Shown here: positions 114 to 12,818 of the stretch, piece by piece | How the letters are laid out: the number at the start of each line of letters is the position of its first letter | How positions within the stretch are numbered: position 1 is the first letter of the stretch | DNA from: Myxococcota bacterium | GTDB taxonomy: Bacteria; Myxococcota; Myxococcia; Myxococcales; Myxococcaceae | Assembly (NCBI GenBank): GCA_049322255.1 | Contig: JBMORE010000103.1 | Location: 1 to 64,000, forward strand | Direction of reading: 5' to 3' | Length of the DNA: 64,000 nucleotides | Made by a program: the position numbers and the translations under genes | The notes under the pieces: generated by a model | The model's database searches: none | The model's input: only the letters and a program-made list of their open reading frames with translations | Told to the model about the DNA's origin: nothing

Positions 114-1745
114 TCAGCTCTCTAGCTCCAGGCGCCCCAAGAAGGACGCGCGCACCCACAGGCTGGCGCCCAAGGCGAGGTCGATTCCCAGGTAGCTGCC
201 CAGCTCGCGACCTACCAGCCCGGAAGCGCCTGTTTGCGCGAGCTGCTCGTCGAGCGAAACTCTGGCCATCAGCCGGGTACGGGGCAGCGGGTGGACTGCC
301 GTGTGCAGGTAACCGCTGCGCCCGCGAAACCACCCCACCTCTTCGGCGTAGCCCAGAGAAATTCCTCCCGCGGCGCCGAGCAACCTCGGCAAAGACAGCT
401 CGGGCCCCAGCCGCGCCATGCCCAGGCCGGTATCAGGGTCGATGGATCCTCCACCCCGCACACCCATCACCAGCCACCCGAAGGGCTCGAAGTCCGCCCC
501 GAGGTCTGCGTGCACTCCTCGCAGCCGTGGTGAAAACACCCCTGCGGCCAGCCGCCCGTCGTCGGAGCCAACGTAACGGACACCGCCGCGCACCCGCCAC
601 GCCTGGCTCAGGCGTCCCCCTGCGTCGAGCTGTACGCCGTCGACGCCGAGCCCCTGCTGCCCCGGTCCCACCCCCAACAGAACTTGCGCCTGCGCATCGA
701 ACTGGCGCTGAAAAAAAGCGTGGAGCGCCGCGCCCAGCTCGAGCCGATCGCCGTCTTCGCCGCGCACCCACCCCACCCGCACCTCCGGTTGCCACAGGCT
801 CGGAGTCGAGCCGCCGGTCGTACGCCGCGTCATGAAGTAGCCGCCGACGGTCCAGCGACTCAGCGAAGGCGTCAGGCTCACCCAGTCCGGCAGCGCGCCC
901 GCGTAGACGCCCACCTCGAGGTCTTCACCGTCGTTCTTCCACCCCGCTTGCACGCCGTCGAGCAACGCCAGGCCGGGGGCGAAGCGTGCCCAGGTGCGCC
1001 CCGCGGCAAAAGTCAGCGCACGCTCCGCCGAGCGCATGGCCAGCTCCGCCTGATAGACGTGCAGCTGCGCCAAAGTTCGTGTCGGGAAGCGGTAGGTGTC
1101 AGGCCGCCGCGCCCAGCCAGTGACGGCCAGGCGGGCGCTGGCACGCACTCCTGGCAGAACTTCGACACCCGCCAACCCCAACGACAACCGCTCTCGTTGA
1201 TAGGGACCCTGCGCGGCGGTCGTTGCCGCATAGGTGTCGTGCTGAAGCGACAGCTCCAGACCCCTGGCTCCCCCTTCTCCAAACAAAGAGCCGCCCGCGA
1301 AGTCGACGAGCTCATGCGCTGCGCGCTCGAGGGCGACGCGTTGGCGCGCGAGCTCGGCTGGCGCGGGCGGCGTGGGAAGAATGGGTGGTGGCGGGGGCCG
1401 CGGCGGCTCTTTTACCGCGAACCGGTCTCCCACCTTGAGCCCACCCGCTCCCTCGCAGGTGGCGGAGTGCTCGCTCACCGCGTCGATTCGGCAGGTCGCC
1501 GCCTTGCCCTTTCGGCCGAAGCGGAGCACCTGGTCGACCACCAGGCCCTCGGCGGCGCCCCGGTCGAGAAAAGCGCGCTCGGCGGTGAGGTACGTCACTT
1601 GACCGGTGTTGGGTGACCGCGGCCTGGCCACGAACGTCGCTGGGGTTGGCCGAGCGGGCTTGACCCGGCGCCTCTTCTTCGCCGCCACGGGCGTGGCGAA
1701 CAACACCGCGCACAGCGCCCATGCCGAAAACCACCGGGCGCTCAT
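114..1745 (-). CDS. Secreted protein, probable outer-membrane beta-barrel (porin candidate) with small N-terminal beta domain and Pro linker
   Basis: Start MSARWFSAWALCAVLFATPVAA (signal peptide) overlaps the upstream stop (ATGA at 1742-1745); C-terminal ~370 aa of alternating amphipathic Gly/aromatic-rich strands. Confidence 0.6.
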   Translation of the reverse strand: MSARWFSAWALCAVLFATPVAAKKRRRVKPARPTPATFVARPRSPNTGQVTYLTAERAFLDRGAAEGLVVDQVLRFGRKGKAATCRIDAVSEHSATCEGAGGLKVGDRFAVKEPPRPPPPPILPTPPAPAELARQRVALERAAHELVDFAGGSLFGEGGARGLELSLQHDTYAATTAAQGPYQRERLSLGLAGVEVLPGVRASARLAVTGWARRPDTYRFPTRTLAQLHVYQAELAMRSAERALTFAAGRTWARFAPGLALLDGVQAGWKNDGEDLEVGVYAGALPDWVSLTPSLSRWTVGGYFMTRRTTGGSTPSLWQPEVRVGWVRGEDGDRLELGAALHAFFQRQFDAQAQVLLGVGPGQQGLGVDGVQLDAGGRLSQAWRVRGGVRYVGSDDGRLAAGVFSPRLRGVHADLGADFEPFGWLVMGVRGGGSIDPDTGLGMARLGPELSLPRLLGAAGGISLGYAEEVGWFRGRSGYLHTAVHPLPRTRLMARVSLDEQLAQTGASGLVGRELGSYLGIDLALGASLWVRASFLGRLELES

Positions 1746-2572
1746 GGAACCTCCGCGAAGCGGTGGCAGGAATAGCACTTGGGATCTTTGCACTGGTATC
1801 CGGGCACCGTGCGGTGGCGCTCGTCCATCTTCGCGCACGCGTGCTCGTGGCAATTCGAGCAGGCCGCGCTTTGGGTCTGGCAAGCGCCCGCCCCACCCAG
1901 CCTGGGGAGCGTGGAGTGGCAGCTCAGACAGGGGATGTGCGCATGTTTGCCCACCGAGATTTCGAAGCAACGGTCGTGTGCGGGGAAGCGGCCGGGAAAG
2001 AAGCGCCAGCCGTCGTGGCACGCTTGGCAGTCGGTGCCAAAACCCGCGCGGGCGTGATCGATTGCTCCCAACGCGGTGCGGTCATAGTCGCGCTGATGAC
2101 AGGTGATGCACGGGGCGGCGGGGAGCGCGAAGCGACGACCGGCGGCGTCGGCGTGACACTCCTCGCAGGGCAGCATCGCGTGCCGGCCAATGAGCGGGAA
2201 GCCGGTCTTGCGATGGGCATCCGCTCGAAAAGCGCCCTGCCAGCGAACCTCGTCATGGCAACCCGCGCAGCGCAGACCCAGCTCTCCCGCGTGCACGTCA
2301 CCGTGGCAGCCTGCACAGTCCCGCAGCACCGGTGTCATGAAGTCCGCTGGGTGGCATGCCTTGCAGCTCACTTGGGCGTGCGCCCCGTTGAGCGGAAAGC
2401 CCGTCTTCGCGTGGTTGAAGCGCACCACCGTCCATCCTTGCGCGGAGTGGCAGGCGTCGCACCTGGTCTGCACCACGTGCGCTGCGGGCGGTTTTGCCTT
2501 GCTCGAAGGGCCCGCGCCCAACAGGAGGGCGACCCCCGACGTCAGGGCACCGGCGAGCAGGCGCGCGCTCAT
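1742..2572 (-). CDS. Decaheme cytochrome c (c3/c7-like repeats)
   Basis: Signal peptide MSARLLAGALTSGVALLLGA; 10 CxxCH motifs; HxxTGFPLxGxH motifs; ATGA overlap with upstream gene. Confidence 0.9.
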   Translation of the reverse strand: MSARLLAGALTSGVALLLGAGPSSKAKPPAAHVVQTRCDACHSAQGWTVVRFNHAKTGFPLNGAHAQVSCKACHPADFMTPVLRDCAGCHGDVHAGELGLRCAGCHDEVRWQGAFRADAHRKTGFPLIGRHAMLPCEECHADAAGRRFALPAAPCITCHQRDYDRTALGAIDHARAGFGTDCQACHDGWRFFPGRFPAHDRCFEISVGKHAHIPCLSCHSTLPRLGGAGACQTQSAACSNCHEHACAKMDERHRTVPGYQCKDPKCYSCHRFAEVP

Positions 2573-4371
2573 GGCTCGAACCCCTGAAACTCGCCGCGGT
2601 GGAAGTCGCTGTGGCAGCCCTCGCAGGTGCTGGGGAGCGGCCGGTAACGCACCGCGGTCACTCCCCGCCCCACCTTCACCTCGCGATGGCAAGCCCTGCA
2701 CTCGAGGGAAGCGTGCTTGCCGTCGAGCTTGAACTCGGTGAACGGCACATCGTGCACGAAGAGCGTCTTTGCGAAGCTCTCGGTCTGGTGACACTTCGTG
2801 CAATCGGTGGGCTGCCCCGGCGGAGCGAACTGACCGGCGTGCACATCGGTGTGGCACCCGCCGCACGCCGTCTCCAGCGGGCGATAGCGCACCGTCTTCA
2901 CTCCCTTTTCCACCGAAGGCGTGTGGCAGCTTCCGCAGGCCGCCCGCGTATGAGCACCCGTGAGCGGGAACCGGGTGTCCTTGTCGTGGGAGAAAGCCAA
3001 GTCGCTGAAGGAGGAAAGACGGTGACAACCCGTGCAACCACCCTCGCGCTTGCCGAACTGGCCCGCATGCACGTCAGGGTGGCACGTTTCGCAGCGGTCA
3101 GCACGGGGGATGTCGAGCCGCGCCAAGCTGAAGAGCTCGGCGCGATGGTCTTTGCGAAGTTGTTTGCGCTGCGCCGTCGAAACTTGGTCGGCCAACGGAA
3201 GGAAGCGGGGGTGGCACGCGTTGCACGCCACCGTCTGATGGGCGCCCTCCAGCGGCCAGCTGGTCTTGGCGTGCGCCTCGAGGCCAAAGCGCGCCGGCAA
3301 GAAGCCATCGACGGTGTGACAGTCCTCGCAAAGGGGTCTACGGCCCTTCTTCGCCAGCTGGCCCAAATGCGCGTCGAAGTGGCAGGTGCTGCAGGTGGAG
3401 AAGGCCAGCCCCTTGAACTTGGCCGGCCGGCCCGAGAAAGGGCCGTGGCAGGCGCGGCACTCCACGTCGATGTGCGCCCCCTTCAAGGGGAAGCGCGTCT
3501 TCTCGTGAAAGGAGCGCTCCTGCGCGGCGTTCCGCAAGATGCGCCAACCCGCCACGGTGTGACAGCTGTGGCAGCGGGGGCCGAAGCGGCCTTCGTGCGG
3601 GTCGTCGTGGCAGCTTTGACACGAGCGGTGCGCGAGCGGCGCAAACTCGAGGAAGGTTTTGGCGCGGGGCGCGGGGAAGATGCCTTGGGCAAAATTGGGG
3701 TCGCGTACCGTCTGATGACACTCCTCGCACTTCACCTTCTTGTGTAGTCCTTCGAGAGGGTATTCGGTGTCGGAGTGGTCGAAACCGGGCGCGGGCTTCC
3801 AGGCCTTTTCGTCATGGCAGCCTTGGCACTCCTGTTCCACTTGGCCGCGGTGCTCGTCGAAGTGACAGCTCACGCACGTTGCGCGTAAGCCGAGAAACGT
3901 CGTTCTCCCCGGCTGCTTTCCCAAGAGGGCGACCACCGTCGCGTCCTGTAGGCGTGCCTTGGCGTGACAGTCGCCGCACTCTTGGCGTGCGTGCGCCCCC
4001 ACCAGAGGCCAGCCGGTTCGCTGATGCTCGAAGCCCTTCTTCCCTGCTTTGCCCCAACCCAACAAGTCGAGCTGCTCTCCCTGGTGCTCGTGGTGGCACT
4101 CTTCACAATGCTCTTTCTTCTCCGCGGAGAGCCTCCCGTGCAAACCCTTGCCAGCCTTCAGCCGGGTCTCGATTTCTTTGTGACAGGTCAGGCAAGACTC
4201 GGCAGACAGCTGCTCGCCCGCCGGGTGGCACTGGGTGCAGTTGGAAATTCCCTCCAGGGACTTGTGGGCGCGGCTCAAAGGGCCGGGCGAGAACAGGTCG
4301 CCGAACGCGGGAGACGCGGCCAGCACCAAGGCGAACGCCGTGCTGCGCAGGGCTCTTACGCGAAAATCCAC
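2569..4371 (-). CDS. Large multiheme cytochrome c (20 CxxCH)
   Basis: GTG start at 4371 gives signal peptide ...TAFALVLAASPAFG; 20 CxxCH counted; tandem (F/W/Y)PLxGxH-CxxCH repeats. Confidence 0.9.
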   Translation of the reverse strand: MDFRVRALRSTAFALVLAASPAFGDLFSPGPLSRAHKSLEGISNCTQCHPAGEQLSAESCLTCHKEIETRLKAGKGLHGRLSAEKKEHCEECHHEHQGEQLDLLGWGKAGKKGFEHQRTGWPLVGAHARQECGDCHAKARLQDATVVALLGKQPGRTTFLGLRATCVSCHFDEHRGQVEQECQGCHDEKAWKPAPGFDHSDTEYPLEGLHKKVKCEECHQTVRDPNFAQGIFPAPRAKTFLEFAPLAHRSCQSCHDDPHEGRFGPRCHSCHTVAGWRILRNAAQERSFHEKTRFPLKGAHIDVECRACHGPFSGRPAKFKGLAFSTCSTCHFDAHLGQLAKKGRRPLCEDCHTVDGFLPARFGLEAHAKTSWPLEGAHQTVACNACHPRFLPLADQVSTAQRKQLRKDHRAELFSLARLDIPRADRCETCHPDVHAGQFGKREGGCTGCHRLSSFSDLAFSHDKDTRFPLTGAHTRAACGSCHTPSVEKGVKTVRYRPLETACGGCHTDVHAGQFAPPGQPTDCTKCHQTESFAKTLFVHDVPFTEFKLDGKHASLECRACHREVKVGRGVTAVRYRPLPSTCEGCHSDFHRGEFQGFEP

Positions 4372-6596
4372 CGGTATCCGAGGAACAGCGAGACGGCGAT
4401 GTGCGCGGCAATCATCAGCACCAGAAACACCGCGAGAAGAACGTGCAGCACCCTCCATACAGAAAGAAGCCGGCGCAAGCTCTTGTAGAAACCGACCTGA
4501 GTGCGCAGCCGATCGATTCTGTGGAACGCCTCGGCGAACTGGCGAAAGTGCCCTTTGGACTGGAACAGCGGCCGAATGCGGCGAAGCTGCCGCCGGGTAC
4601 GCCACGCCCGCAAGGGCATTCCTGCGAGCATCACCGTGAGCGAGCCCCCCACCGCCGGAGCCGTGGCCCGTTCGAGCACCGCGTGCACGGGGACGACGTT
4701 GGTCACCCCTTCGAGCAGAGGCTCGACGCGCGACTTGAGGCGTTCCCAACGCGAGAGCACCTCGGCGTACTCGACGGTGTGTCCTTCGTGGGTCGGAACC
4801 AGCCCGTAGACGAACCGGCCGACGATGCCGGTGGCCACCACCACCGCGAGCGAGGCAGCCGTCCCGCTGGCAAGGAAGTTGTTGGACTGAAAGGCCGCGT
4901 GAAAGGCAATGACCAGCGGGCTCATGAAGCCGACGAACTGGTGGAAGGTGAGCCAGCGGCGAATGGGGCCCGCCCCCTTGAGCAGCCTCCAGCGCTTGCG
5001 CACGGCGTAGAGGAAGTTCGACAGCATCACCGCCGTGGCGACGATGCCCACCCCGTGGCCCCAAACGCCTGCCGGGCGCAGCGCCTTGTGGAGCGGCGAA
5101 GCCAACCGGTCGACGACCGATAGGCGGTAGTAGTCGAAGCCGACCACCATCAGCCCGGCGACGATGAGCGCGCCGATGGTGAACAGGCTCAGCACGAACC
5201 GGCGGTGGCGGCGCTTCTCCGCTTCTTCCTTGGCGCTGCCGCGACGGGCGCGCGCGGTGGCCACGGCGGGCTCGTCGACCGCCCCCGGAGCGGTGCCAAA
5301 GTGCCGGCGCAGCCCCACTCCTGCTTTGGAAAGAAATTCGGTGGGCAGCTCCCCGCCGATGCACACCAAGACGAAGTCGTTGGGTAGGCGGACCTGACGG
5401 TCCTTGAGCTGCATGAGGACGTCTTGGGGGCGAACCTCCATCACCTGCGAGGCCATCATCGCGGTCACCGCCCGCTGCTGAATGAGCTCGGCGATTTTTC
5501 GCTTGTTGGCTTCGCGGCACTTCCCGAAGGCTTCGTTGCGGTAACTGATGGTCACCTGCGCGTCGCTCTGCTCGGCGAGCTGAATCGCCGCTTCGAGCGC
5601 CGAGTCGCCGCCGCCCACCACCAACACCTTGGCACCGTCGTACTGCTCCGGGTCGATGAGCCGATAGCTGACCTTCTCCAGCTCTTCGCCTTTGCACCCC
5701 AGCTTCCTCGGCGAGCCGCGCCGCCCCGTGGCGAGCACCACCTTGCGCGCGCGCATCGAGCCCTTGCTGGTCTGCACGGTGAACTCGCCGTCGCTCCCTT
5801 CGATGGTGGTCACCTTCACCCCTGGCTCGATGGAGACCTTCGCCTTGGCCAACGCCCGCTGCCAGGACTCCAGTAGGTCTTCCTTGGAGATGAGCGAGCG
5901 ACCGAACTTTCCGTAAAAGGGAAGCTCCACCCGCTCGGTCATCACCACCTTCTGCCGTGGGTAGTGGGCAATGGTGCCCCCCAAAGACTCCTGCTCGAGC
6001 ACGCGGAACGACAGCCCGGCCTTCTTGAGGCCCAACGCGGTCGCCAGCCCTGCGGGCCCCGCCCCGACGATGACCACGTCGGTCGCTCCGGACACCTGGG
6101 AGCGCTTCATCCGATCGCCCAGGTGCGCCGCCACCTGAAGCCCCTGTGTGATGGCGTTCTTGATGAGCCCCATCCCTCCCAGCTCACCCACCACGTGCAC
6201 TCCTGCACGGCTGGATTCGAAAAATTCGTCGACCTCCGGCAGGTCTTGCCCACGCTGAGCCGTCCCGAAGACGAGCTTGATGGCGTCGACCGGACACTCC
6301 AGGGCGCACTTGCCGTGGCCGATGCACGCCGCGGCGTTGATGAGCGTCGCCCGACCGTCCACCACACCGAGAATGTCTCCCTCGGGGCAGACCTCCAGAC
6401 AGGAAAGGCTGCCGATGCAGATGTCCGGGTCGATGACCGGGTGCAGCGTCTGCGGAATGTGGAGGTTCTGCGCTTCCGCCGAGGCGAGCGCCTCCGCGTC
6501 TCGCTCTTCACGGCGCGCGCGCGCGCGAATCATCCACACGGCCGCCCCCACGAAGGAGGCCAGCACCACCAACCCTACAAGGACGTCGATGACCAT
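4356..6596 (-). CDS. Membrane-bound ferredoxin / TrxR-like FAD-NAD(P)H oxidoreductase with C-terminal His-rich membrane domain
   Basis: N-terminal TM; CIGSLSCLEVCP and CIGHGKCALECP Fe-S motifs; GAGPAG, ATG and GGGDSA motifs; five C-terminal TM helices with paired His. Confidence 0.85.
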   Translation of the reverse strand: MVIDVLVGLVVLASFVGAAVWMIRARARREERDAEALASAEAQNLHIPQTLHPVIDPDICIGSLSCLEVCPEGDILGVVDGRATLINAAACIGHGKCALECPVDAIKLVFGTAQRGQDLPEVDEFFESSRAGVHVVGELGGMGLIKNAITQGLQVAAHLGDRMKRSQVSGATDVVIVGAGPAGLATALGLKKAGLSFRVLEQESLGGTIAHYPRQKVVMTERVELPFYGKFGRSLISKEDLLESWQRALAKAKVSIEPGVKVTTIEGSDGEFTVQTSKGSMRARKVVLATGRRGSPRKLGCKGEELEKVSYRLIDPEQYDGAKVLVVGGGDSALEAAIQLAEQSDAQVTISYRNEAFGKCREANKRKIAELIQQRAVTAMMASQVMEVRPQDVLMQLKDRQVRLPNDFVLVCIGGELPTEFLSKAGVGLRRHFGTAPGAVDEPAVATARARRGSAKEEAEKRRHRRFVLSLFTIGALIVAGLMVVGFDYYRLSVVDRLASPLHKALRPAGVWGHGVGIVATAVMLSNFLYAVRKRWRLLKGAGPIRRWLTFHQFVGFMSPLVIAFHAAFQSNNFLASGTAASLAVVVATGIVGRFVYGLVPTHEGHTVEYAEVLSRWERLKSRVEPLLEGVTNVVPVHAVLERATAPAVGGSLTVMLAGMPLRAWRTRRQLRRIRPLFQSKGHFRQFAEAFHRIDRLRTQVGFYKSLRRLLSVWRVLHVLLAVFLVLMIAAHIAVSLFLGYRWIFA

Positions 6597-7241: not shown

Positions 7242-7820
7242 CTACTGGTACTCGATGACCTCGTAACCCAAGAAGTCTTTGGCGCCGCGGTTCTCGTAGG
7301 CGTGGGGCACATCGGCGGCGAAGTCGATCGCGTCTCCCTCGTCGATCTCGAAGGCGGTGTCGCTCACCCAGATGGTGAGCCGGCCCTTCACCACCACCAA
7401 GTTCTCTCGCGTCCCCGGAGGGTGCGGCGGCCCCTCGGAACGCGCCCCCGGTGCGAGCCGAAGCTCGTACATCTCCGATTTGCGGCGACTCTGGCGGGGA
7501 AAGAGCGGGCGGCTCTGAAACTTGCCGTCGGCCGAGGAAAGCACCTGCATCTCTTCGCGGCGCACGAGGTTGACGTCGCGCTTGGGCTCCTCCCCGAGCA
7601 TCGCGCTGAAGTTCAGCCCGAAGGCAGTGGAGATTTTCCACAACACGGCGATGGTGGGGTTGGTCTTCCTGGCCTCGATTTGGGAGAGCATGGCGCGCGA
7701 GACCCCGCTGCGCCTGGCCAGCTCGTCGAGGGTCCAGCCGCGGTCCTTGCGCGCCGCCCGAAGCTGCTCGGCCACCTTGGCTTGAAAGGCCTCCGCGCTG
7801 TCCTTCTGCGGGCGCGCCAC
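7242..7820 (-). CDS. XRE-family HTH regulator with C-terminal cupin
   Basis: WTLDELARRSGVSRAMLSQIE...NPT HTH; cupin PH...E...GDAIDFAADVPHAYEN. Confidence 0.88.
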   Translation of the reverse strand: MARPQKDSAEAFQAKVAEQLRAARKDRGWTLDELARRSGVSRAMLSQIEARKTNPTIAVLWKISTAFGLNFSAMLGEEPKRDVNLVRREEMQVLSSADGKFQSRPLFPRQSRRKSEMYELRLAPGARSEGPPHPPGTRENLVVVKGRLTIWVSDTAFEIDEGDAIDFAADVPHAYENRGAKDFLGYEVIEYQ

Positions 7821-7821
7821 G

Positions 7822-8703
7822 CTAGCCGACGACCCGGTTGCGCCCGCCGCGCTTGGCCTTGTACAGGTTGGCGTCGGCGACCTTGATGAACTGCAAAGGC
7901 TCGGTCATGTCGCCGGTCATGTCTCCCACGCCGATGGAGATGGTGACCGGAATGTCCTTGCTCTCGAAGGAGAAGGGGTGGTCTTCCACGAGCTTGCGCA
8001 CCTTCTCGGCGAAGCGGCGCGCGTTCTCCGGGCCCGCCTCGGGCATCACCACCGCGAACTCTTCTCCACCGTAACGGGCGAAGCACTCTTCTTTGCGAAT
8101 ACGCGGCTTGATCAGGCTCGCCAGCTCGCGCAGCACGTAGTCTCCCGCCAGATGCCCGTTGACGTCGTTGACCTTCTTGAAGTGGTCGATGTCGAAGAGA
8201 ATGAGCGAGAGCGAGCGATTGTAGCGGTGGCAGCGACCCATCTCGCGCTCGAGGAACTCGAGGAAGAAGCGCTTGTTGTTCACCTGGGTCAGCCCGTCCA
8301 TGATGGTGAGCTGGTAGATCTCCTCGTGATAGAGGCTCTCGATGTTCCCACCCGAGAGGAACTTGAAGATCGACCCGCCCACCTTGACGAAGTCACCGCT
8401 GCGCAGCGGCGTCTCTTCGAGCACTTCGTCGTCGTTCAGATAGGTGCCGTTGGTGGAGCCCAAGTCGACCACGAAGTACTTTCCCTGGCGGGAGAGGATT
8501 TTGGCGTGGCGGCGCGACACGTTGTCCAGATCGACCACGATGTTGTTCTTCACGTCGCGCCCGATGGTGAACTCCTCGTCGTCGAGGATGTACTTCTTGC
8601 CCAGGTTCGGACCGTGAATCTCCACCAGACAACTCTCGCCACCGGCCGTGATCCGATCCTGCAGCTTCGAGATCTTGGTGACACGCGTTTCCTGGCCGCC
8701 CAT
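7822..8703 (-). CDS. FHA-domain diguanylate cyclase
   Basis: FHA (IGR...VSRRHA...STNGTYLN) plus DIDHFKKVND...GHLAGD...RYGGEEF. Confidence 0.93.
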   Translation of the reverse strand: MGGQETRVTKISKLQDRITAGGESCLVEIHGPNLGKKYILDDEEFTIGRDVKNNIVVDLDNVSRRHAKILSRQGKYFVVDLGSTNGTYLNDDEVLEETPLRSGDFVKVGGSIFKFLSGGNIESLYHEEIYQLTIMDGLTQVNNKRFFLEFLEREMGRCHRYNRSLSLILFDIDHFKKVNDVNGHLAGDYVLRELASLIKPRIRKEECFARYGGEEFAVVMPEAGPENARRFAEKVRKLVEDHPFSFESKDIPVTISIGVGDMTGDMTEPLQFIKVADANLYKAKRGGRNRVVG

Positions 8704-10547: not shown

Positions 10548-12101
10548 CTAGCCGACCGCCGCCGCCACGTGCTGCGCGCCCCAGCGGGCAAGGGCGAAGA
10601 TGGTCTCCTGGGGGTTGACCCCCAACCCGGTGGGAAACACCGAGCCATCGACCACGAACAGGTTGTCGAGCCCGTGGTAGCGCAAGCGCGAGTCCACCAC
10701 CGAGGTGTGCGGGCTTTTTCCCATCGCGCAGCCGCCCATCTGGTGCGCGGTCAGCACCTTGAGCCGCAGCTTCTCCCACGGGGCGGCATCGAGCTTGGGC
10801 AGGTCGTTCTCCGACTCGAGCACCACCGGGTCGAAGTGCAGGCTGTAGACCCTCTTCGCTCCCATGCGTAGCTGCAGACGCGCCGTTTCGCGGCAGGCGG
10901 TGCGAAAGGCCTCCAGGTGCCGCTCGGTGAGCGGGTAGTCGAAGCTCACCCGGCCGTAGCCTTGGGTGCGCAGCTTCACCGTGCCGCCCTCGTCGCCCTC
11001 CTCCACCCCGTCGACCAGCGGGCAGCCGATGGCGTTCATGTGCGAAAGCTGCGCCATCATCTCCTGCAGCGGACGGCCGAACCCCGAGGCGAGCACCGCC
11101 ACCGTCATCGGAAAGAGCGGGCCCACCTCGAGGAAAAAGCCCATCTGGCCCTTCTCGCGCTGGGCGAACTGGTGCGAGTACACCGCCTGCGGAGCTCCTG
11201 CGAAGGGCTCGACCGGCTCGTCGAAGATGCCCAGCGTGGCGGTGAAAGGGTGCAGATAGGTTCGCTTCCCCACCCGGCCGTTGCCGGTCAGCTCGGAGCG
11301 CAAGAGCAGCGCCGGGGTGTTGATCGCCCCGCACGAGAGGGCGGTGACCTTGGCGCGTACCACCACCTTGCGGCCGGTGGGCTCGTCACGCTCGGGGTGC
11401 AAGACCTCTCCATGCACCGCCACCACCCGGCGGTGGGAGACCTCCAGGCGCCGCACCGAGACGTTGGCGTAGAGCGACAGCCCCTTCTTCACCGCGTCGG
11501 GAATGACCGTCACCAGAGTCGACTGCTTGGCATCGATGGGGCAGCCCATGCCGCAGTAGCCCAGGTCGGCGCAGTGGCGCACGTTGCGCGAAAGCAAACC
11601 CCGGTGGTAGCCGAGCTTGCCCAGGCCCTCCCAGAGGATGCGGTTGTTGCGGTTCATCCGCTCCTTTGGCCACTCGGCAATCGACAGGCGTTCTTCGATC
11701 GCTTCCCAGTGAGGAGCGAGCGCCTCGTGCGACAGGCCCTCCACACCGAAGCGGTCGCGCCACAACTCGAGAATGCGCTTCGGCGCGCGGAAGCTGGTGC
11801 TCCAGTTCACCGTCGTGCCGCCGCCCACGCTGCGGCCCTGGAGTATTCCCACCGCCAGATCGTCGGTCGTGCGGTTGCCCAGCTCTTGGTAGAAGTGGGT
11901 GAAGGCGTGGGCCTCGTCGAGCTTGAAGTCGCGGCGGGTGAAGTAGCCGCCCTCCTCGAGCATCACCACCGACAGCCCGCGGGCGGAAAGCTCGTGCGCC
12001 AGCCAACCACCCCCCGAGCCGGAGCCGACGATGCACACGTCGCAGCTCAGCGCGAGGTCTTGGGCCAGCTCGTCTCCGGTGTAGATGCGGCCCTCTTTCA
12101 C
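10548..12101 (-). CDS. GMC-family oxidoreductase
   Basis: DVCIVGSGSGG FAD motif, GRSVGGGTTVN, CGAINTPALLLRS, HQMGGC, VDGSVFPT...NPQETI. Confidence 0.92.
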   Translation of the reverse strand: MKEGRIYTGDELAQDLALSCDVCIVGSGSGGGWLAHELSARGLSVVMLEEGGYFTRRDFKLDEAHAFTHFYQELGNRTTDDLAVGILQGRSVGGGTTVNWSTSFRAPKRILELWRDRFGVEGLSHEALAPHWEAIEERLSIAEWPKERMNRNNRILWEGLGKLGYHRGLLSRNVRHCADLGYCGMGCPIDAKQSTLVTVIPDAVKKGLSLYANVSVRRLEVSHRRVVAVHGEVLHPERDEPTGRKVVVRAKVTALSCGAINTPALLLRSELTGNGRVGKRTYLHPFTATLGIFDEPVEPFAGAPQAVYSHQFAQREKGQMGFFLEVGPLFPMTVAVLASGFGRPLQEMMAQLSHMNAIGCPLVDGVEEGDEGGTVKLRTQGYGRVSFDYPLTERHLEAFRTACRETARLQLRMGAKRVYSLHFDPVVLESENDLPKLDAAPWEKLRLKVLTAHQMGGCAMGKSPHTSVVDSRLRYHGLDNLFVVDGSVFPTGLGVNPQETIFALARWGAQHVAAAVG

Positions 12102-12709
12102 GGCCCGTCCTCACCCACCCGCTCGCCACCGCCCTTCCACACCGGAGCATCGGGCTGATGAAAACCCTGCGGAGGCCCCGGGTAACCCACCGCCTGATGC
12201 ACCTTGGACGAGCCGTAGTAGCCCGCGAGCACCAGCGAACGCAGAGCGGTAAAGCCGGTGCGGCGAAGTGTGACCGCGCTGTCTCGCCACTCGGCGAGCA
12301 CCTGGTCTTGCTCCTCCGCCGCCATTTGAGTGAACGGCCGCGTGCGCGCGCCGAAGAGGAAGTTGGGCAGGGCGTTTTCGAACAGGCCGAGCAGTTGCCG
12401 AAGCTCGGCGCGGGCGTCGGTTGGAGCGAGGGCGAGCAACCGATCGACGGCCAGCGGCACGCCGACGTCGGCGATGGTCGGCCAGCCCTCCTGCGGGACG
12501 ATGAAGCGCGTCGCCAGCGCGTGCACCACCGCATACTCGGTGGCGTCGAGCACCAAAAGCCCCTCCACGGGTAGAGGCACCAGCGCGGTGCGGCGAGAGG
12601 CCAAAAACCCGCCTCCGCCGAGAGCGAGCAGCGCACCGCCGACCAACCCCCGTCGAAGAAAGCTGCGGCGGCTATGGCCCGGCGGCGGAATGTAGATGTT
12701 CATCGCCAT
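12098..12709 (-). CDS. Tat-exported gluconate 2-dehydrogenase subunit 3-like partner
   Basis: SRRSFLRR twin-arginine signal; PFTQM...QDQVL and GYY...GYPG motifs; overlaps GMC start. Confidence 0.8.
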   Translation of the reverse strand: MAMNIYIPPPGHSRRSFLRRGLVGGALLALGGGGFLASRRTALVPLPVEGLLVLDATEYAVVHALATRFIVPQEGWPTIADVGVPLAVDRLLALAPTDARAELRQLLGLFENALPNFLFGARTRPFTQMAAEEQDQVLAEWRDSAVTLRRTGFTALRSLVLAGYYGSSKVHQAVGYPGPPQGFHQPDAPVWKGGGERVGEDGP

Positions 12710-12818
12710 CCGCGGGCACCCTACCACCGCCGCGCATCAGTTAGGCTGAAGACGCCCGGAGGCGCAGCGTGTGCTCGACGGGCCCGGCCAGAGGTAGAAA
12801 CAAAAACGCGGAGGGACG

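Follow-up and report, generated by a model that had tools for sequence, protein, structure and literature searches.

Can a bacterium with two membranes feed a heme wire to its surface directly from cytoplasmic NAD(P)H, with no quinone in between? To our knowledge, the characterised extracellular electron transfer routes of Gram-negative bacteria start at a quinol dehydrogenase (CymA, ImcH, CbcL, CbcBA). The question is raised by four genes, here called A, B, C and D, at positions 114 to 6,596 of a 64,000-nucleotide stretch of DNA from a Myxococcota bacterium (hereafter the window; GenBank assembly GCA_049322255.1, contig JBMORE010000103.1). An earlier note, made from the letters alone, had read them as a candidate conduit coupling NAD(P)H to the cell surface. 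The analysis presented here tips the balance slightly toward the view that A-B-C-D form a quinone-independent electron-export chain running from cytoplasmic NAD(P)H toward the surface. The genes, and the short tail behind them, are as follows.

4356 to 6596, minus strand: gene A, 746 amino acids (stop included in the coordinates), predicted inner-membrane protein with flavin, iron-sulfur (Fe-S) and di-heme-b parts
2569 to 4371, minus strand: gene B, 600 amino acids, GTG start, secreted 20-heme cytochrome c
1742 to 2572, minus strand: gene C, 276 amino acids, secreted 10-heme cytochrome c
114 to 1745, minus strand: gene D, 543 amino acids, secreted, predicted outer-membrane beta-barrel
1 to 113, no strand: tail after the stop of D, reaching the contig end; the window begins at the first base of the contig

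The contig measures 117.7 kb, of which the window takes up the first 64 kb, so that there is nothing to read left of position 1; it belongs to an assembly of 4.85 Mb with a completeness of 99.6%. The G+C content is ~66%, and the closest relatives of the window's proteins are found in Myxococcaceae/Archangiaceae-type genomes. A and B overlap by 16 nt (4356-4371), the stop of B and the start of C share an ATGA (2569-2572), and the stop of C and the start of D share another (1742-1745). The minus-strand coordinates and the translations bear out the four co-oriented genes with these overlaps that had been described earlier. With an overlap at all three junctions, the sequence reads as an operon of four translationally coupled genes. 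A heads the operon, because the gene upstream of it, which encodes a histidine phosphatase (phosphoglycerate-mutase-like), lies on the opposite strand. A scan of promoters and terminators returned no promoter and six terminator-like sites against 5.2 expected, which is nothing above chance.

The entry point of the proposed chain is protein A. Its full-length homologues are 56-70% identical to it, and the sole name that they carry is 'NAD(P)-binding domain-containing protein'. Four parts can be told apart along its sequence.

6528 to 6596, minus strand: residues 1-23, N-terminal membrane anchor, followed by RARARREERD
6291 to 6443, minus strand: residues 52-102, ferredoxin-like domain (Fer4_10 of Pfam, E value 4.3e-10)
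5301 to 6080, minus strand: residues 173-432, FAD/NAD(P)H two-Rossmann domain of the YpdA/TrxR type (GAGPAG, GGGDSA, VTISYR)
4359 to 5189, minus strand: residues 470-746, five-helix membrane domain with a cytoplasmic helical insert of ~110 residues between helices 4 and 5

The flavin domain is matched by Pyr_redox_3 of Pfam over residues 175-428 (E 2.2e-45). Its best solved relatives are the NADPH-dependent YpdA (Bdr) structures 7a76 and 7a7b (7a76 at E 1.6e-40 in a profile search), followed by thioredoxin reductase (TrxR) and TrxR-type ferredoxin-NADP reductases. A VIA fold search with residues 163-436 aligned 263 residues with 7a76_A (Z 21.2, root-mean-square deviation (rmsd) 5.7). In the alignment to 7a76/7a7b, GAGPAG of A stands opposite GGGPCG of YpdA, and the Cys, which we take to be the YpdA active site, is replaced by Ala. 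Disulfide reductases of the YpdA/TrxR fold depend on redox cysteines, and a redox-active CxxC in the NADPH domain is the trait of thioredoxin reductase. Protein A has nine cysteines, six in the Fe-S motifs (60, 66, 70, 91, 97, 101) and three elsewhere (301, 360, 411), with no CxxC among them. It also missed the NCBIfam cut-offs for the YpdA equivalog (167.4 bits vs 339.9) and for thioredoxin reductase TIGR01292 (74.6 bits vs 343). The lack of CxxC and the replaced YpdA Cys fit electron transfer over disulfide reduction, and the missing redox cysteines argue against a thiol substrate. A role of A as a disulfide reductase was rejected, since no redox cysteine is left. A has the look of a flavoprotein for electron transfer, akin to the ferredoxin reductases. 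The GGGDSA...VTISYR signature, common to A and YpdA, suggests NADPH as the donor, and NADH would also be possible.

The ferredoxin-like domain holds two unusual motifs, C60-x2-S63-x2-C66-x3-C70-P and C91-x2-H94-x2-C97-x3-C101-P, the second with an invariant His at the position of the second cysteine. All eight of these positions are invariant among 33 homologues. All 12 distant split flavoproteins from other phyla retain the His, and the Ser position of the first motif varies among the 12 distant relatives (C, S, A, I or T). Such motifs would hold 3Fe-4S-like clusters, or 4Fe-4S clusters with a non-cysteine ligand. The domain matches uphold the description of A in the earlier note as an NAD(P)H/FAD/Fe-S protein, with the correction that each Fe-S motif holds three cysteines only. 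The structure model places a helix at residues 2-42, and by the positive-inside rule the RARARREERD side of the anchor would be cytoplasmic, with the Fe-S and flavin domains on that side.

The membrane domain carries the features that point to heme. Helix 3 contains W548-x3-H552-x13-H566, helix 5 contains W714-x3-H718-x13-H732, and helix 4 contains T589-G-x-x-G593. H514, H552, H566, H718 and H732 do not vary in any of 33 fused homologues, nor in any of a second set of 20 sequences, to which split forms at 25-30% identity belong. G590, G593 and W714 are likewise invariant in both alignments, T589 is invariant among the fused homologues, and W548 is nearly invariant in both. The paired transmembrane histidines claimed for A are therefore present, as H552/H566 and H718/H732 at a spacing of i,i+14. 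Helices 3 and 5 would both run from the cytoplasm to the periplasm, as judged from the Arg/Lys-rich loops. If they are parallel in this way, H552/H718 would hold a heme at the inner face and H566/H732 a heme at the outer face. No Pfam family spans the five-helix domain. A profile of it, run against 1.84 billion proteins, matched 4772 cluster representatives at E<=0.001, 739 of which reach E<=1e-30; the best matches are mostly stand-alone proteins of 280-310 amino acids, and all ten stand-alone members that were looked up are named 'hypothetical protein'. A metagenome scan gave close fused relatives only, which were left aside.

The two cytochromes supply a long row of c hemes. B has exactly 20 CXXCH motifs, arranged as six triheme c7-like units and one diheme unit (30 residues per heme), and C has exactly 10 (27.6 residues per heme); no CX3-4CH occurs in either. 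These numbers are conserved, with 20 CXXCH in the B homologues of 45 of 48 loci and 10 in all 28 C homologues. Both proteins start with Sec-type signal peptides that lack a lipobox. The exact counts and their conservation in homologues corroborate the signal-peptide-bearing 20-heme and 10-heme cytochromes seen at first reading. Cytochrome_C7 of Pfam matches B in four stretches (E 1.1e-25) and C at E 8.2e-12, and B also passes the cut-off of MtrC/MtrF_II-IV (36.4 bits, cut-off 30). Against the DmsE/MtrA family of NCBIfam, B reached 30.3 bits where the cut-off is 192.2, and C has no NCBIfam match. Among solved structures no match for B was found by sequence at E<=0.01.

D starts with a signal-peptide-like N-terminus and matches no family of Pfam or NCBIfam; its best sequence match among solved structures has E 0.51. 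An AlphaFold model built on an alignment of 29 homologues (pLDDT 83.1, pTM 0.65) begins with a small beta domain (47-110) and a helix (129-141), which are followed by 21 strands (164-542). Foldseek returned 74 matches in the PDB at E<=0.001, of which those listed are all beta-barrel membrane proteins, nearly all from outer membranes. The VIA search, which is independent of Foldseek, gave beta-barrel membrane proteins in 50 of the 50 matches listed. In VIA, the barrel aligned with 22-strand TonB-dependent receptors over about 320-345 residues (Z 15-16), with ushers (Z 15), and with MtrB (6r2q_B) over its whole length (Z 13.1, 343 residues, rmsd 6.4). A protein-atlas search found unnamed clusters only, in Myxococcota, Planctomycetota, Acidobacteriota and Bacteroidota. 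D is thus predicted to be a large outer-membrane barrel, in line with the secreted beta-barrel-like protein proposed before. In view of the model and the barrel matches of both fold searches, a soluble D was rejected.

The small N-terminal beta domain of D (window about 1416-1607) has a motif of its own, G-x-V-x-Y-x-T-x-x-R-A-Y-L-D-R-G, which is kept as far as the Bacteroidetes and Gemmatimonadales homologues, and the Atlas relatives of D have AMIN or SPOR domains in front. This domain may dock B or the cell wall.

The question, raised in the earlier note, of whether the decaheme cytochrome docks in the barrel was put to co-folding, which predicts that it does. The C-D pair scored 0.62 (0.61-0.64 in three runs), and the best of three controls scored 0.00; the mark set for this score was attained in 116 of 157 solved complexes and in 2 of 215 mismatched pairs. 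Contact agreement between the runs was at least 73%, and the pLDDT of the partner was at least 68. The confident contacts involve nearly every strand of D (166-540) and residues 58-197 of C, a segment that holds six CXXCH motifs (70, 86, 102, 136, 155 and 182). Of the remaining motifs of C, the one at 38 lies on one side and those at 215, 238 and 266 on the other. C is thus predicted to sit inside D with the geometry of MtrA in MtrB.

Whether these four genes belong together can be judged from other genomes. Among 79 related loci from species-representative genomes, 48 have the order A-B-C-D on one strand, so that synteny elsewhere, which the earlier note had left to be checked, is established. 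In nine more loci with a full fused A, the contig ends within 311 nt of the last visible gene. Outside Myxococcota, A is divided between two genes, one for an anchored flavoprotein of ~450 amino acids and one for a five-helix protein of ~270-300 amino acids. These split forms were found in a Krumholzibacteriia, a Latescibacterota, a Bacteroidetes, an unclassified genome and eight Gemmatimonadota-type genomes. The two genes either neighbour each other there, in one order or the other, or diverge, and cytochromes with 16 to 33 CXXCH are encoded next to them. In the Bacteroidetes locus a profile of D matched the protein that follows the cytochromes with a probability of 95.5% (E 1.3e-8), and in a Gemmatimonadales locus with one of 97.6% (E 2.8e-12). 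Since the D family follows the cytochromes at split-A loci of both groups, all parts travel together across phyla.

Within Myxococcota, D occurs in 68 of 301 sampled genomes and 36 of 137 genera (one unpublished genome, G195, included). The distribution is patchy: 19 of 114 genomes have it in the family to which the window belongs, and 28 of 40 in a family whose genomes measure 4-6 Mb. Beyond the cytochromes no consistent conserved neighbours were found at the related loci; a kinase, an AAA protein and a LysM-chitinase occur at some of them. At two loci an extracytoplasmic function (ECF) sigma factor gene stands directly after D (L009:14577-15191 and L012:14662-15240) and could regulate the cluster there.

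From the gene structure, motifs, conservation, synteny and predicted folds, we infer the following path of electrons, including its cofactors, donor, direction, acceptor and bypass of quinone. The flavin domain of A, in the cytoplasm, would oxidise NAD(P)H, and FAD would pass the electrons to the two Fe-S clusters, one of which has a His in the usual place of a Cys ligand. From there they would cross the inner membrane through the inner-face heme b (H552/H718) and the outer-face heme b (H566/H732). The 20-heme B would take them over on the periplasmic side of A and act as a wire across the periplasm, and would hand them to the 10-heme C, threaded through barrel D as MtrA is in MtrB. In the relatives only, a ~30-heme MtrC-like lipoprotein cytochrome would carry them beyond the surface. 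The step on which the bypass of quinone depends is the hand-over within A. Because the flavoprotein is fused to the five-helix domain in Myxococcota and adjacent to it in other phyla, a direct hand-over between the two can be argued.

Several results weigh against this reading, at its membrane domain, at its outer end and in its host. The AlphaFold model of the whole of A is weak (pLDDT 71, pTM 0.40, and below 50 in the Fe-S part). Ferric_reduct (PF01794), the Pfam family that comes closest to a NOX-like role, matched residues 517-578 below its threshold (17.4 bits vs a cut-off of 28). An Atlas structure search with residues 470-746 returned unnamed relatives only, with no NOX/FRD-type cluster above TM 0.4. 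No family member with a biochemical study was found among the homologue names or in the PCC3 literature. A quinone site in A is possible, and published work points in that direction. The accessible text of He et al. 2017 (PMC5566968) describes porin-cytochrome clusters, PCC3 and PCC4, that were predicted from genomes alone and consist of a porin, a periplasmic cytochrome (median 21 hemes) and an extracellular cytochrome (median 34). They come with an inner-membrane protein of ~300 amino acids, whose five helices include one with SGXXG (helix 4) and two with WX3HX13H (helices 3 and 5); the binding of two b hemes and an exchange with quinone were proposed for it (PMC5566968). Smaller clusters are given in Supplementary Table 6 of the same paper, in which a cytochrome and such a membrane protein are joined by a protein of 412-805 amino acids with no name beyond 'other redox protein'.

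The likeness of the window's cluster to these descriptions is close. Residues 470-746 of A have the motif set, with Thr589 in place of the Ser of SGXXG. B has 20 hemes, against about 21-27 in PCC3; later figures give 21-27 hemes for the periplasmic and 10-35 for the extracellular cytochrome, as stated in the available part of a Gallionellaceae survey (PMC9900912). D has 21 strands, against the 22 predicted for the Leptothrix PCC3 porin (PMC5566968). The counterpart of the extracellular cytochrome with its 10-35 hemes would be the ~30-heme protein of 26 related loci; the window, whose contig ends 113 nt past D, has none beyond C. As far as the published descriptions allow the comparison, the differences are that an NAD(P)H flavin/Fe-S protein is fused to the membrane unit of A and encoded next to that unit in other phyla, that the window's cluster has an additional decaheme cytochrome predicted in the barrel, and that the carriers are Myxococcota rather than Proteobacteria. 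By its parts list and motifs, the cluster appears to be a variant of the predicted PCC3/PCC4 kind, set apart by the NAD(P)H flavin/Fe-S module. A preprint on Sideroxydans CL21 (10.1101/2025.02.27.639646), in the part available, describes PCC3 as four genes that are functionally unverified.

One may thus ask whether A-B-C-D is a quinone-linked conduit as in the PCC3/PCC4 model, with the flavin/Fe-S part serving as an NAD(P)H:quinone reductase or as a regulatory or accessory module. The role of quinone-reactive cytochrome b that He et al. 2017 (PMC5566968) gave to membrane proteins with like motifs speaks for it, as do the invariant H514 and conserved polar residues near the periplasmic face of A and the fact that most five-helix family members stand alone at 280-310 amino acids. 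Yet the published quinone link is itself put forward as a hypothesis in the accessible text (PMC5566968), no quinone-binding family of Pfam or NCBIfam matches A, and a flavoprotein fused or adjacent to the membrane domain is more simply explained by direct hand-over. We therefore regard the quinone-linked conduit as rather unlikely and retain the direct route from NAD(P)H.

The outer end of the chain is less complete in this genome than in its relatives. In 26 related loci, a cytochrome of ~1200 amino acids with 27-30 CXXCH is encoded just after D or just before A (e.g. L038:14387-18118). Lipobox-like signals are present in all three of its N-termini that were read, and the one copy scanned matched MtrC/MtrF domains II/IV at E 2.3e-30. 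No homologue of it was found at E<=1e-8 in the window's 4.85-Mb assembly. At six other loci (L046, L048, L052, L055, L056 and L064), C and D are separated by the gene of an extra cytochrome; the two copies whose motifs were counted have 11 and 14 CXXCH, and several copies have lipobox-like signals. A homologue of this extra cytochrome is present in the window's own genome (L081, contig C140, 2103-4082, minus strand); it has 16 CXXCH, ~50% identity and a lipoprotein-type N-terminus. C140 is an 8.7-kb contig on which its neighbours are unrelated, namely a fatty-acyl-AMP ligase/acyltransferase fusion and two proteins without a family.

D itself appears to be cut short. It aligns to positions 4-537 of a 561-position profile of 28 homologues, which leaves it ~24 positions short. 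Outer-membrane barrels usually end in a residue such as F, L, W or Y, as do 42 of 45 complete homologues, and D ends in S. A missing last strand fits the odd strand count of 21. The early stop may reflect a genuine truncation or a frameshift, or the assembly may be wrong so close to the contig end. As a candidate for a frameshift, the shifted frame after the stop reads ...ELIPLGAKGIDVGVEK followed by a stop; it is strand-like by eye and scored E 1.1 in a profile built without the window's sequence, so that it was set aside as unsupported. The co-fold of C and D is subject to a caution of its own, as the pass may lean on the solved MtrCAB structure and is no proof of binding. A further point concerns A: at L036:7539-10088 a full-length fused A is encoded (C-terminus ...GYVWFR, of a subgroup also met in the protein search), and the 8 kb on each flank contain no multiheme cytochrome, which indicates that the fused protein can occur without the wire.

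These results raise the question of whether the copy in the window is decaying or incomplete, so that the surface is not reached or the system is inactive. The truncated D with its final S and odd strand number and the assembly without a ~30-heme homologue are what such a copy would show. A, B and C are nevertheless intact, with all motifs and overlaps, and the contig ends 113 nt past D, so that faulty or missing assembly may be the reason for the short 3' end of D and for the lack of a gene behind it. Moreover, C140 encodes the 16-heme lipoprotein-type cytochrome, and 22 of the 48 A-B-C-D loci likewise have no match to the giant cytochrome within the DNA covered. A defunct copy is, in our judgement, distinctly unlikely. 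The idea of a conduit that ends at the cell surface is strengthened by the MtrC-like cytochrome of the relatives and is weaker for this copy, in which that cytochrome was not found and D lacks its last strand.

The direction of flow bears on what such a chain could be for. In the export reading, electrons would leave a negative-inside cell while the proton of NAD(P)H stays in the cytoplasm; the proton-motive force would thus be dissipated and no energy conserved. Since no energy would be conserved, the chain would be an outlet for reductant rather than a respiratory coupling site. It could serve as a redox valve or sink by which NAD(P)+ is regenerated, or as a reductase for ferric iron or humics that works in the way of eukaryotic FRE/NOX. 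The last of the points to be set against the reading is that two heme-copper oxidases are encoded by the host, which has no obvious need of an anaerobic electron sink. These oxidases, together with the cytochrome c maturation genes that are also present, indicate that the host is an aerobe or facultative, and a redox valve or reductase suits such a host better than obligate metal respiration. The genome encodes nine proteins with at least three CXXCH, of which B is the largest and C the fourth-largest.

The opposite direction, in which extracellular Fe(II), reduced humics or a cathode would deliver electrons through A to NAD(P)+ or another substrate of the flavin domain, had been left as an option in the earlier note. 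Heme wires are reversible in principle, as in the Mtr and Mto systems. It was in Fe(II) oxidisers that PCC3 was first recognised, and a possible role as an iron oxidase is discussed for it in the available parts of three sources (PMC5566968, PMC9900912, 10.1101/2025.02.27.639646). However, electrons from Fe(II)-type donors would have to climb steeply to reach NAD(P)+ (about -320 mV), inward electrons would have to move against the membrane potential with no sign of an energy-coupling device in A, and the carriers (Myxococcota, Gemmatimonadota, Bacteroidota and the like) are not known lithotrophs. Both the redox gradient and the membrane potential thus disfavour uptake, and we consider it very improbable.

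Viewed as an exporter, the cluster resembles several known systems in part. Mtr systems are fed by the quinol dehydrogenase CymA. The window's cluster is like MtrCAB of Shewanella (6R2Q), MtoAB and PioAB in that a decaheme cytochrome is predicted inside a large outer-membrane barrel, and the surface cytochrome of the relatives matches MtrC/MtrF domains II/IV. It differs in that D, B and C fall outside the MtrB/PioB and MtrA/DmsE sequence families, B and C being built of c7-type triheme units, and in that D has 21-22 strands where MtrB has 26. The Hmc/Tmc complexes of sulfate reducers join periplasmic multiheme cytochromes c to cytoplasmic Fe-S proteins via a membrane cytochrome b. Their cytoplasmic subunits are HdrD-like, they lack both an NAD(P)H flavoprotein and a part in the outer membrane, and electrons usually flow inward from periplasmic hydrogen oxidation. 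The link of heme c, membrane heme b and cytoplasmic Fe-S would be common to Hmc/Tmc and to the window's cluster, and the NAD(P)H flavoprotein of A and barrel D set the latter apart.

Protein A alone invites two further comparisons. Its best sequence and fold matches are YpdA (Bdr) and the TrxR-type ferredoxin-NADP+ reductases (7a76, 7a7b, 3lzw, 3ab1), with which it shares the NADPH-type second Rossmann motif; it differs from YpdA in a flavin domain without the Cys, in its membrane anchor, and in the fusion to ferredoxin-like and heme-type membrane domains. In the proposed order of cofactors it resembles NOX/FRE of the ferric reductase domain superfamily (PMC3591440). There, cytoplasmic NAD(P)H reduces a flavin, two bis-His b hemes stacked across the membrane and an outside acceptor in turn. 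The His pairs on two helices predicted to be parallel would be a further likeness, and the match to PF01794 is a weak, sub-threshold one. The flavin domain of A is, however, of the TrxR/YpdA type and not of the FNR type, two Fe-S clusters would be interposed, the membrane domain has five helices and a separate N-terminal anchor where NOX/FRE have six, and the acceptor would be a c-heme wire instead of O2 or Fe(III) directly.

A wider proposal, to which we give not quite an even chance, is that A represents a new type of entry to extracellular electron transfer at the inner membrane: an oxidoreductase, NOX-like in character, that takes electrons from NAD(P)H to a heme wire independently of quinone. 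It would form a self-contained circuit with the 20-heme wire, the barrel-threaded decaheme cytochrome and, in the relatives, the MtrC-like cytochrome, would be widespread in Myxococcota, Gemmatimonadota, Bacteroidota, Acidobacteriota and Planctomycetota, and may also be the cytoplasmic end, so far unrecognised, of PCC3 in the iron-oxidising Proteobacteria. No description of an NAD(P)H flavoprotein partner of such clusters was found in the literature searched, outside which lay bioRxiv supplements and most subscription journals, and in a survey of Desulfuromonadia cytochromes the words NADH, NADPH, FAD and flavoprotein are all absent. The remark of the earlier note that it recognised no characterised system with this layout accordingly holds for the flavoprotein partner, which is undescribed in that literature, and has to be qualified by the precedent of the predicted PCC3/PCC4 clusters. 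If the proposal is true, a direct NAD(P)H route would be a different bioenergetic design, in which the membrane potential helps to drive the flow. Many organisms not counted as electroactive could then reduce extracellular substrates, the module being present in abundant, mostly uncultured phyla of soil and sediment, and the published reading of PCC3 clusters would change.

Two further gene pairs were observed in the window near the cluster. Past the divergent histidine-phosphatase gene, an HTH-cupin regulator (7242-7820, minus strand) and an FHA-GGDEF diguanylate cyclase (7822-8703, minus strand) are encoded. A GMC oxidoreductase (10548-12101, minus strand) is preceded by a gluconate 2-dehydrogenase subunit-3-like protein (12101-12736, minus strand), and the two make up a flavoprotein dehydrogenase pair of the periplasmic type.

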